The notes beneath the pieces are model-generated. The model ran no database searches. It saw only the letters and a list, made by a program, of their open reading frames with translations, and was not told the origin of the DNA. A stretch of DNA of 16,668 nt from the UHGV virus genome UHGV-0071483. One strand, given 5' to 3'. Below are positions 5,577 through 7,773 of this stretch, piece after piece. The translations under genes and the position numbers were made by a program. How positions within the stretch are numbered: the stretch's first letter is position 1; each line of letters starts with the position of its first letter. The stretch comes from a virus.

Positions 5577-6269
5577 TTAATTGTGTCGCTTAAGGGTTTG
5601 TGACTGGCTGATTAAGACCTTTCCAAAGACCATAAACCGGTGTTCATTTTCGCTGGTAATTCCCCATTCACGGTAAATCTGGTTATCAGAAATCACCAGT
5701 AGTTTGTCAGGTATCATTTGCAGTCGTTTGACATAAATTTTATCATCAAAACCAAATACATAGATACCATCTCCATCAAACTGATTGATACTGACATCAA
5801 CGAAGATGAGATCTCCTGGCTCAATGGTTGGACACATACTGTCCCCACGAACGTTGATAACTTTAATGTGATTGGCTGGTCGTCCGCCAAACATCGATAC
5901 AGCATTATCAGTTCTGTATTCAATGGCATGAATCACATCAATGACATCACCGCCCTGGATAAGGCCATTTCCCGCACTGGCACTGACATCCAGCATTTCA
6001 ATACGGAATACATCCTTCACCTGCGCAACATCCTCACTAATACTGTTTTTACATACAGTATTACTTTTGAAGTCTGAGGTAAAGAGATCAGCAATATCAA
6101 CACCTAAGCTCCTGGCAATATTACTCAGAGCTTGTTCAGTGAATTGTTTCTGCTTACCTGTTTCCAGGCGCGAGATATTCGCCGCATCCACTCCTATTGC
6201 TTCAGCGAGATCGGCGATTTTCATGTTCTTCGCCTGGCGAAGTTGTCTGACTCGATTTCCTATGTTCAT
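5577..6269 (-). CDS. cI: cI-like prophage repressor: N-terminal XRE-type HTH and C-terminal S24 (LexA-like) self-cleaving peptidase domain
   Basis: HTH region KIADLAEAIGVDAANISRLETGK; peptidase motifs GDSM (catalytic Ser) and VKRL (Lys); divergent from the Cro-like gene; no SD, consistent with a leaderless mRNA. Confidence 0.85.
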   Translation of the reverse strand: MNIGNRVRQLRQAKNMKIADLAEAIGVDAANISRLETGKQKQFTEQALSNIARSLGVDIADLFTSDFKSNTVCKNSISEDVAQVKDVFRIEMLDVSASAGNGLIQGGDVIDVIHAIEYRTDNAVSMFGGRPANHIKVINVRGDSMCPTIEPGDLIFVDVSINQFDGDGIYVFGFDDKIYVKRLQMIPDKLLVISDNQIYREWGITSENEHRFMVFGKVLISQSQTLKRHN

Positions 6270-6366: not shown

Positions 6367-6627
6367 ATGCAATCACCATTACGAAATGTGCGTAAGGCGC
6401 ACGGTCTTACTTTGCAGCATGTTGCTGCGGGCGTTCAGGTTAATCCAGCAACGCTGAGTCGTATTGAGAGACTGGAACAAATTCCATCTATCGATCTTGC
6501 AGAGCGTCTGGCCAATTTTTTTAAGGGAGAAATCAGCGAAATGCAGATTCTCTATCCTGCACGCTTTCAATCTAGTCAAAACCGGAATGAGTTAAAACCA
6601 CAGGAACAGGAGGTAAGCCGTGGGTAA
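6367..6627 (+). CDS. cro: Cro-like XRE-family HTH regulator, 86 aa
   Basis: HTH GLTLQHVAAGVQVNPATLSRIE; SD GGAGG; divergent from cI. Confidence 0.75.
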   Translation: MQSPLRNVRKAHGLTLQHVAAGVQVNPATLSRIERLEQIPSIDLAERLANFFKGEISEMQILYPARFQSSQNRNELKPQEQEVSRG

Positions 6628-7171
6628 GCATCACTGGAAAGTGGAAAAACAACCTGAGTGGTACGTGAAAGCTATCAGAAAAACTATCGCGGCATTGCCA
6701 GGTGGTTACGCTGAAGCTGCTGACTGGCTGGATGTAACAGAGAACGCATTATTTAACCGCCTTCGTGCCGATGGCGATCAGTTTTTTCCGTTGGGATGGG
6801 CAATGGTTTTACAGCGTGCGGCTGGTACTCACCACATTGCGGATGCTGTCGCACAGTCTGCTGGTGGGGTGTTTGTATCACTTCCAGAAATTGAGGAAGT
6901 AGAGAACGCTGATATCAACCAACGTCTACTGGAAGTTATTGAACAGATCGGGAGTTACTCAAAGCAGATTCGTTCGGCAATCGAAGACGGGGTAGTGGAG
7001 CCACATGAGCAGACAGCAATTAATGATGAGTTGTATCTGTCGATTTCGAAGCTCCAGGAACATGCGGCACTGGTCTACAAAATTTTCTGCGTTCCAGAAA
7101 AGAGTGACGCCCGCGAGTGTGCAGCTCCGGGCGTCGTGGCGTTTTGTGTCTGTGGAGAAACTAACGCATGA
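6620..7171 (+). CDS. CII-like phage regulatory protein (CP76/YdaT-like), GTG start
   Basis: Position after cro, AGGAGG SD, 8-nt overlap with the cro stop; family assigned from general resemblance only. Confidence 0.45.
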   Translation: MGKHHWKVEKQPEWYVKAIRKTIAALPGGYAEAADWLDVTENALFNRLRADGDQFFPLGWAMVLQRAAGTHHIADAVAQSAGGVFVSLPEIEEVENADINQRLLEVIEQIGSYSKQIRSAIEDGVVEPHEQTAINDELYLSISKLQEHAALVYKIFCVPEKSDARECAAPGVVAFCVCGETNA

Positions 7172-7316
7172 ACAGTTTAACGGCAAATAACCGTTGGTCG
7201 CAACAGCTGGTGGTCCGCGTGGCTGAACACCTGTTGTTACGGCATGAATGCAGATTACCAAATCACCTGGCTGTAAGTAACCACAGAGAACTTTACCTGA
7301 CTGTGGGGGGCGAGTT

Positions 7317-7496
7317 GTGCAGGAACTTAACCGCTGGTTTCGTGACGGAAGAGGACTTTATGTTCATGTTATTCGTTGGGAGCCAGAAACACAGCGCGTT
7401 ATCTATCTTCGCAAAGACTACCCGCATGAGTGCTTTAGTCCTTTGTGGAAATTCAGGCGTGATTTTGTTGAGTGTGAAGGACCACCAGCACATTGA
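7317..7496 (+). CDS. Small protein (59 aa from GTG) in a different frame from the 383-aa track ORF; possibly DUF4222-like; may be joined to the ORF starting at 7168 via the G6 run at 7305-7310
   Basis: Protein-like translation VQELNRWFRDGRGLYVHVIRWEPETQRVIYLRKDYPHECFSPLWKFRRDFVECEGPPAH; G-rich SD-like run 7 nt upstream. Confidence 0.3.
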   Translation: MQELNRWFRDGRGLYVHVIRWEPETQRVIYLRKDYPHECFSPLWKFRRDFVECEGPPAH

Positions 7497-7581
7497 TTCT
7501 GCCATTCCGGGACGTTACACTGTTCAGGCACCTTATAAAGCGGGTGCCGGGCGTGGAAACCCGGAATTCACCAAAGCGCAC

Positions 7582-7604
7582 AACCGCGCTCTTGCGGTTT
7601 TTTT
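7582..7604 (+). terminator. Intrinsic terminator-like hairpin (stem AACCGC/GCGGTT, then T7 run) inside the 383-aa track ORF, upstream of the Rha start
   Basis: Direct reading; argues that 7168..8319 is not a single gene. Confidence 0.4.
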
Positions 7605-7773
7605 GTGTCATGAGCAGCATTACGCCCAAATTATGGTGGGGCGTGCAGGGCCAACTTCGGTTGGGCCGGGTTCTTTGGTGACCGGTATTTCCACCCCTGT
7701 ACGTCTCACCACCAATAAGGTCGTGGAAAGCCTTGGTGGTGAGTTATTAAAAATCACCAAAGAGGCTGCCATC

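Follow-up and report, generated by a model that had tools for sequence, protein, structure and literature searches.

The stretch of DNA analysed here (the window) comprises 16,668 nucleotides (nt) of virus genome UHGV-0071483 and contains the early region of an Escherichia coli lambdoid prophage. An open reading frame (ORF) of 383 codons begins at position 7168 of the window and runs in frame into a gene of the Rha family; a preliminary description made from the sequence had considered this ORF probably an artefact, with a run of six G residues (G6) at which the more protein-like reading changes frame. Our analysis indicates that the interval 7168–7773 is probably a stack of overlapping elements in an early-right operon, and not one damaged gene. 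The elements are as follows.

6620–7171, + strand: ymfL, a CII-like gene (Phage_CP76 / NF041471 YmfL) and the upstream early gene; its TGA stop (7169–7171) overlaps ATG 7168
7168–8319, + strand: long frame-1 ORF, 383 codons, eta-like, ATGA-coupled to ymfL and in frame into Rha
7305–7310, + strand: G6 run, the Shine-Dalgarno (SD) sequence of the DUF4222 GTG start, 6 nt before the GTG; not a frameshift site
7317–7496, + strand: DUF4222 gene in frame 3 (−1 relative to the long ORF), 59 amino acids (aa), running from a GTG to a TGA that lies within the −35 box of P_isrK
7493–7521, + strand: P_isrK, predicted promoter and analog of P4 PLE; TTGATT (7493–7498), 17 nt, TACACT (7516–7521)
7528–7604, + strand: IsrK / P4 seqA-like small RNA (sRNA) gene; Rfam RF01394, 67 bits against a gathering threshold (GA) of 50
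7629–7716, + strand: C4 / P4 CI / N15 CA-like antisense RNA gene; Rfam RF01695, 83.6 bits against a GA of 45, full-length model match
7633–7635, + strand: ATG equivalent to the first AUG of Gifsy-1 orf45, at +107 from the IsrK start
7723–7765, + strand: downstream target region, seqC-like, holding sites a2 and b2
7774–8319, + strand: nested Rha gene, 181 aa, with Phage_pRha at residues 21–106; start context GAGGCTGCCATCATGGCTAC

The long ORF thus reads DUF4222 out of frame and crosses P_isrK, the IsrK-like gene and the C4-like RNA gene before it reaches Rha. Homologous loci are referred to below by numbers with the prefix L.

DUF4222 is an independent gene

The −1 frame is open from 7281 to the TGA at 7494–7496, as had been described, and the peptide that it encodes, judged protein-like at that stage, is a genuine DUF4222 protein (Pfam PF13973; E 1.6e-13, 50.4 bits against a cut-off of 27). 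Newer runs of the Prokaryotic Genome Annotation Pipeline (PGAP) call it as a 59-aa gene from GTG 7317. Selection on this gene was assessed in homologs picked by a pattern in the downstream DNA, a set that is unbiased for these frames; 80 further loci had been fetched by DUF4222 protein identity, which makes their all-synonymous pattern circular, and they were not relied on. In the unbiased set, 22 of the 31 variants in 7317–7493 fall at the third codon position of DUF4222, and the same 31 variants are 20 synonymous and 11 non-synonymous in the DUF4222 frame against 2 and 29 in frame 1. Comparison of the window with the e14 element of E. coli K-12 gave the same picture, the DUF4222 proteins being 64% identical without gaps whereas the frame-1 products are 32% identical with gaps. 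The gene is intact in all homologs; a literature search found no functional work on DUF4222.

The G run precedes the GTG at a spacing of 6 nt (GGGGGG-6 nt-GTG), and in other lineages its place is taken by different sequences: e14 has AAGGAG-8 nt-TTG, and L007 has AGGTAA followed by ATG. Three lineages therefore have three ribosome-binding solutions before the same conserved protein. DUF4222 is an independent gene with its own start and the G run is its SD sequence. Because of this start, and because homologs of the L015 type read TGGGGGATGAATCGTG and so have a TGA in the DUF4222 frame between the G run and the GTG, no frameshift is needed to produce the protein.

Programmed −1 frameshifting had been proposed at this site, and the sequence does permit it in form: the frame-1 codons are GTG-GGG-GGC, G GGG GGC (7305–7311) has the pattern X XXY YYZ of a slippery heptamer, and with the −1 frame open from 7281 a shift would give a 109-aa fusion of the frame-1 N-terminus to DUF4222. 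However, the L015-type run (G GGG GAU GA) places its −1-frame TGA directly after the run, a further variant reads G6-TGAGTT, and in L007 and L010 DUF4222 lies behind a different upstream gene, with an ATG start and no N-terminal extension, while e14 has its own AAGGAG and TTG. The N-terminal 49 codons of such a fusion are not conserved as protein. To our knowledge, heptamers consisting only of G are not among the efficient bacterial slippery sites. We regard a programmed frameshift as very improbable.

A homopolymer sequencing error, or inactivation of a once continuous gene by a frameshift, has even less to recommend it, and we consider that there is scarcely any chance of either. In both cases a true G7 would fuse the N-terminus to DUF4222. 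Homopolymer runs are error-prone and a single fetched locus has G5; yet among the fetched loci, which include complete genomes and phage mEp460, an identical G6 is seen in 121 of the 130 G-run motifs, and G7 occurs in none. A G5 would shift the upstream frame into the stop-rich frame 2, and DUF4222 is complete, with its own start, in the absence of any extension.

Two RNA genes lie between DUF4222 and Rha

The fourth explanation offered in the preliminary description, two overlapping small genes, came closest, but it missed the two RNA genes that form the core of the locus. The first of these begins just downstream of P_isrK, with a predicted transcription start at approximately 7527–7528, and matches the IsrK family. 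The terminator-like hairpin with a T7 run that had been noted at 7582–7604 is real and ends this IsrK-like sRNA; a terminator scan placed its stem at 7582–7599 and the T7 at 7598–7604. The second gene matches the C4 family over the full length of the model and has the C4 fold, a long closing stem with two hairpins.

For comparative analysis, homologs were drawn from viral contigs with a 16-base IsrK pattern, and 38 distinct segments from IsrK to the nested ATG were aligned (alignment A2). Of 38 distinct upstream segments, 29 carry the TTGATT-17-TACACT block, and upstream contexts that are otherwise unrelated become homologous from the −35 box of P_isrK onward. The internal stems of the C4-like RNA (helices 4–6) are 100% paired in the alignment, with seven compensatory pairs.

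The Rfam family of C4 RNA targets, c4-a1b1 (RF03163), has a sub-threshold match at 7515–7567 (22.6 bits against a GA of 46.7), which overlaps the −10 box of P_isrK, the 5′ half of IsrK and site a1 (7553–7559) and stops just before site b1 (7568–7576). A third RNA element in 7168–7320 was also considered, and the idea was dropped as this segment showed no unusual RNA structure (z = +0.68) and no further Rfam match.

Recognition and target sites co-vary in three copies

The C4-like RNA carries two recognition segments, a′ and b′, each complementary to one site in IsrK and to one site ahead of Rha.

7553–7559, + strand: a1, GTGGAAA, target site in IsrK
7568–7576, + strand: b1, TCACCAAAG, target site in IsrK
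7673–7681, + strand: b′, CTTTGGTGA, recognition segment of the C4-like RNA, in the loop of hairpin 2
7688–7694, + strand: a′, TTTCCAC, recognition segment of the C4-like RNA
7723–7729, + strand: a2, GTGGAAA, downstream target
7754–7762, + strand: b2, TCACCAAAG, downstream target, overlapping the SD sequence AAGAGG (7760–7765) of ATG 7774

RNAduplex over-extends pairing when it is run on whole segments, and covariation counts were used instead. Between IsrK and the C4-like RNA, 98.5% of the cells in A2 are paired, compared with 69% after shuffling and 36–51% when the sites are slid against each other, and 12 of the 16 pairs are compensatory. The pairing of b′ with b2 is equally consistent (98.2% of cells paired; eight of nine pairs compensatory), and that of a′ with a2 is clear in W-type rows but blurred in the other rows by an alignment gap. 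All three copies of the pairing sites co-vary, with at least seven b-types and at least five a-types that assort independently. This layout is the a1b1 / a′b′ / a2b2 logic of P1 c4 and the seqA / seqB / seqC logic of P4.

Independent assortment of the a and b sites implies recombination within an RNA gene of about 90 nt, and with it combinatorial immunity specificities. Recognition of the locus as an RNA immunity module of the P4/P1 type predicts many hetero-immune specificities (combinations of a and b) controlling antirepressor-like genes, and hence prophage induction.

Several details of these sites can be added. The a sites occupy A2 columns 26–32, 161–167 and 196–202 and the b sites columns 41–49, 146–154 and 227–235; one b-type, GCATACGG, was found with three different a-types. 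L096 (3898–4146 and 4746–4994), and also L020 and L056, carry two IsrK-C4-antirepressor modules in tandem, 650–1300 nt apart, the second long frame being ATGA-coupled to the first gene. In the second copy of L096 the sites in IsrK and C4 share one b-type (CAATATAG/CTATGTTG), but the downstream b2 is of the window type (CACCAAAG); this copy is a recombinant with mismatched specificity.

The RNA genes account for the Phage_ASH domain

Residues 117–213 of the long ORF (window 7516–7806) match Pfam Phage_ASH (E 2.1e-15), and the name ‘ash family protein’ is used by PGAP for such products. The locus could on this ground be read as encoding a conventional multidomain Ash-Rha protein, made from ATG 7426 or ATG 7633, in which a folded Phage_ASH domain is needed for Rha and the RNA matches are secondary. 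The strength of the match, the PGAP name and the conservation of the frame are in keeping with such a protein. The pattern of conservation is not: in this stretch it is the promoter, RNA stems and SD sequence that form the conserved blocks, and the variable columns have no codon periodicity and no third-position excess. The specificity sites swap amino acids wholesale (FTKA, LHTA, LSTA, LIKA and others) while RNA complementarity is kept, and the C-termini to which the same ‘domain’ is joined are unrelated, among them Rha, P4 Kil and those of other ORFs. The Phage_ASH ‘domain’ is the translation of the IsrK and C4 RNA genes, and it is conserved because the segment translates two RNA genes; an Ash-Rha protein of the conventional kind is improbable.

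Rha has a nested start at ATG 7774

The protein encoded downstream belongs to the Rha family (PF09669 / TIGR02681), with 106–107 bits against 29.9 for the Pfam model and 102 bits against 45.95 for the TIGR model. Upstream of its Phage_pRha domain lie the SD sequence AAGAGG (7760–7765) and ATG 7774–7776, which had already been put forward as the real Rha start. The proposal is borne out: SD and ATG are invariant in the 38 distinct homologs, the co-varying target site b2 overlaps the SD, and the start is homologous to that of P4 kil. For these reasons ATG 7774 is a genuine Rha start, and one for which RNA control can be proposed. ATG 7633 is in frame with it, 47 codons upstream and with no stop between.

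The long frame is kept open across the module

We next consider the 383-codon frame itself. Its start had been described as having an SD sequence and an ATGA overlap with the CII-like gene, and both are present (ATG 7168–7170 over the ymfL TGA, and GGAG at 7153–7156). There are 22 stop trinucleotides in 7168–7773 and none of them is in frame 1, for which the chance expectation is (2/3)^22 = 1.3e-4. The distance from anchor to ATG is 228, 231 or 267 nt in 35 distinct IsrK-to-ATG segments, of which 34 can be read without a stop in the nested-ATG frame, compared with 12 and 0 for the other two frames; the single exception is L108, with an indel in a T run. Counted as distinct stop columns, the contrast is 1 in the nested-ATG frame versus 20 in the other two.

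Openness extends upstream of the RNA genes. Diverged homologs encode continuous ORFs of approximately 380 aa collinear with frame 1, the very observation that the preliminary description had named as contradicting an artefact; homologs of the L015 type have a 6-nt in-frame deletion in 7168–7316 and keep the frame; and in 10 of 16 contexts no other frame stays open for longer than frame 1 upstream of the module. In contigs of the L049 and L031 types, unrelated toxin-antitoxin (TA) pairs on the − strand are inserted between DUF4222 and P_isrK (L049:10622–11370, TumE with an HVO_A0114-like partner; L031:3978–4666, Gp49 with an HTH_3 partner). Across these inserts of approximately 700–750 nt, frame 1 of the plus strand has no stops, compared with 14 + 10 and 13 + 11 for the remaining two plus-strand frames; with synonymous recoding as the reference, P is ~0.002 and ~0.007. 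The window, e14, L015-type homologs and P4 all retain the ATGA coupling.

The alternative that keeps most of the preliminary description treats the long ORF as an artefact of annotation and nothing more, with DUF4222, the two sRNAs and Rha from 7774 as the real units and frame 1 untranslated upstream of 7774 (or 7633). Its openness would then reflect chance, shared ancestry and G+C-rich structured RNA. Such an account is in line with the want of amino acid conservation and of codon periodicity in frame 1, with the stop-free second frame over IsrK and C4 in the 12 of 35 sequences already mentioned, with newer PGAP runs, which drop the 383-aa call, and with the Gifsy-like locus L082, which has no long frame. 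It fits poorly with the absence of all 22 stops from frame 1 and the 1 versus 20 stop columns, with indels that are in-frame only, with a frame that stays open over both antisense TA inserts, which are unrelated and each ~700 nt long, with the ATGA coupling shared by the window, e14, L015-type homologs and P4, and with the homologous P4 eta, which is reported to be translated and functional (PMC10111431). We consider it unlikely; the 383-aa frame is probably not an artefact, although it encodes no conserved protein upstream of Rha.

Several points weigh against our interpretation of the locus and its long frame. Frame 1 lacks codon periodicity of substitutions over IsrK/C4 and over 7168–7316, hence it encodes no conserved protein there and openness is the sole signal; part of that signal is shared ancestry, and the probability of no stop over DUF4222 alone is ~0.04. 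Residues 1–120 of the long ORF have no Pfam match. The GGAG sits 11 nt from ATG 7168, and in contexts of the L012 and L034 types the first in-frame ATG lies 60–110 nt past the upstream stop, so coupling is not universal. The frame is broken in L082, L010 and L108. P_isrK agrees with the consensus at only 8 of 12 positions, a generic promoter scan did not pick it up, and ATG 7633 has no obvious SD sequence. Finally, in Gifsy-1 orf45 is out of frame and ends on an AUGA overlapping anrP (PMC4825925), whereas the equivalent frame here runs into Rha, and the Gifsy layout was not found in the window.

The broken loci differ from one another. In L108 (5639–5886) the T run that ends the IsrK terminator has lost one base (T7 to T6), which interrupts the long frame, and PGAP lists L010 (1309–2015) as an ‘ash family protein’ with a frameshift; no other Rha-linked module examined has a broken frame. 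L082 (− strand, near a pattern match at 6039–6062) has an antirepressor of the Bro-N/ANT type with ATGA at the nested start, no long open frame, and an orf45-like frame that ends within the b′ loop; the read-through frame therefore seems to be tied to the early-operon context. That the long frame is strictly ATGA-coupled in all contexts had also been entertained and is ruled out by those of the L012 and L034 types.

The e14 ymfM annotation conflicts with DUF4222

The first 120 codons of the long frame are the positional homolog of K-12 ymfM, annotated in e14 as b1148, ‘cell division inhibitor YmfM’. The two share their position, the ATGA coupling to ymfL, the N-terminus MNSLT and the frame relation to the DUF4222 gene; e14 differs in lacking the isrK-C4-Rha part, and its frame ends after 112 codons. 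Despite these common features YmfM orthology did not hold, given the low, gapped identity and non-synonymous substitutions in frame 1: between window positions 7168–7496 and e14 only the DUF4222 frame is conserved, and the ymfM frame is not.

Annotation of e14 is itself divided. The MG1655 reference has a 112-aa ymfM in the ymfL-coupled frame (L009:1271–1629, L213:2323–2661), and PGAP-annotated K-12 assemblies have instead the overlapping 59-aa DUF4222 (TTG start, AAGGAG SD).

A term search of the preprint on ymfM found no mention of a frame-specific mutant or of protein detection, and we found no literature combining ymfM with ribosome profiling. Since only its frame is conserved, and since the term search of the preprint gave neither a frame-specific mutant nor protein detection, the filamentation phenotype could belong to DUF4222. 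This conflict of frames raises the possibility that YmfM, the published division inhibitor of e14, was mis-assigned.

Genomic context, distribution and annotation

Upstream of ymfL, the early region contains the following genes.

5577–6269, − strand: XRE repressor
6367–6627: cro-like gene

The locus is widespread and ordinary among E. coli prophages: of 5426 complete E. coli genomes, 2998 have some match to it and 554 have at least 80% of 7000–8400. Phage mEp460 is ~99.7% identical over the 311 nt tested (7490–7800) and has the same surrounding ORF layout.

Annotations of the locus vary between a 383-aa ‘Rha’, a 297-aa ‘Rha’ with DUF4222, and an ‘ash family protein’. Identical DNA in L001 and L002, two assemblies of one strain, is annotated in two ways by RefSeq: as one 383-aa Rha over 7168–8319, and as DUF4222 with a 297-aa Rha from ATG 7426. 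Neither has the RNA genes or the start at 7774. Recognising an RNA immunity module of the P4/P1 type gives the correct gene model for the locus.

Proposed model

By homology with the systems compared below, P_isrK would be active as a promoter, the RNAs would be processed, Rha would be repressed, and translation of the long frame would bring about anti-termination. In a lysogen, the constitutive internal P_isrK would fire and most transcripts would end at 7604, giving the IsrK-like sRNA, while read-through past the IsrK terminator would give the C4-like RNA (7629–7716). Pairing of b′ with b2 and of a′ with a2 would occlude the ribosome-binding site of Rha and block its synthesis. The same b′ and a′ segments could also pair with b1 and a1 in IsrK, with the effect either of promoting termination, as in P4, or of titrating the C4-like RNA by free IsrK, as in Gifsy-1.

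On induction, transcripts that begin at an early promoter ahead of ymfL and the cro-like gene would arrive already translated. At the ATGA, ribosomes would move on from ymfL to frame 1 and read through the terminator and both RNA structures, and Rha (in its long form) and the downstream replication genes would be expressed regardless of RNA immunity. Ribosomes can prevent both terminator hairpins and Rho loading (PMC5021804). The best reading of the locus is a nested arrangement of the eta/kil kind, in which translation from the early operon would override RNA immunity.

A bolder version of this reading is that selection keeps frame 1 open purely as a track for ribosomes and not for any protein, that YmfM is a truncated stump of the track, and that the SfiC/YmfM division block may come from DUF4222. 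We advance it tentatively, as a possibility that is rather less likely than otherwise. If true, translation would be free of gaps from ymfL through the DUF4222 region, the promoter, the two sRNA genes and, in relatives, the TA inserts as far as Rha, and both RNA immunity and Rho polarity would be overridden.

Comparison with known systems

The RNA module is a homolog of those of Gifsy-1 (isrK-orf45-anrP), P4 (seqA-CI-seqC), N15 (cA) and P1/P7 (c4). The closest parallel is the immunity region of satellite P4 (PLE - seqA - CI RNA - seqC; NC_001609 8812–8168, − strand), which has the same order of elements and homology at the nucleotide level. In P4, an internal constitutive promoter gives the immunity RNA and Kil is a truncated product made on read-through, whereas full-length Eta comes solely from the promoter upstream, in translational coupling to an alpA homolog, and its translation prevents termination (PMC10111431, summarising Forti et al. 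1999). The start of eta forms an ATGA with the stop of ORF88, as that of the window ORF does with the stop of ymfL. The eta ORF holds an internal promoter and Rfam isrK and C4 matches and ends as Kil; the window ORF is likewise nested, holding seqA-, CI- and seqC-like elements, with an internal SD and ATG overlapped by the seqC-like site as in P4. Both have the a and b sites in three copies each, and the P4 kil start context CAGGAGGCTGCCATCATGGCTAC is almost identical to AAGAGGCTGCCATCATGGCTAC in the window.

The two also differ. The host element is a satellite in P4 and the early operon of a lambdoid prophage here; the nested product is a Rha-domain protein (Phage_pRha) in the window and an unrelated 65-aa Kil in P4, a test for homology to Kil having been negative. 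From the coupling ATG to IsrK there are 357 nt here, including the out-of-frame DUF4222, compared with ~70 nt in P4, and the spacing from the seqA terminator to CI is ~100 nt longer in P4. The two differ in a/b specificity as well.

In the isrK-orf45-anrP locus of Salmonella Gifsy-1 (PMC4825925), the IsrK sRNA has its own promoter and terminator, as predicted here, and a stable C4-like RNA, STnc1160, arises from read-through, as a counterpart of which the window has its C4-like RNA gene. The orf45 AUG is at +107, the same distance as ATG 7633; an antirepressor-type gene lies downstream in both; and both have ~30 nt of complementarity between IsrK and the orf45 region. The Gifsy-1 locus, however, lies behind antQ in the late region, whereas the present one lies behind a CII-like gene, and the role of IsrK differs among the known systems, as it activates in Gifsy-1 and helps to terminate in P4.

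The C4 fold is also common to the window, c4 of the P1/P7 immI region (which targets a1b1/a2b2 and controls icd-ant) and the N15 cA anti-immunity RNA; blastn links the window to N15 cA (~72% over 155 nt) and to P1/P7 c4 (84–86% over ~55 nt). In P1/P7 as in the window, a′ and b′ are complementary to an upstream and a downstream target pair, and the first gene downstream has its ribosome-binding site covered by b2. Unlike P1/P7, the window has no icd-like ORF between the RNA and the regulated gene, and we know of no long ORF that reads through c4 in P1. The locus thus joins published kinds and is no new kind of system: the module, its Rfam families and the eta/kil principle had all been published.

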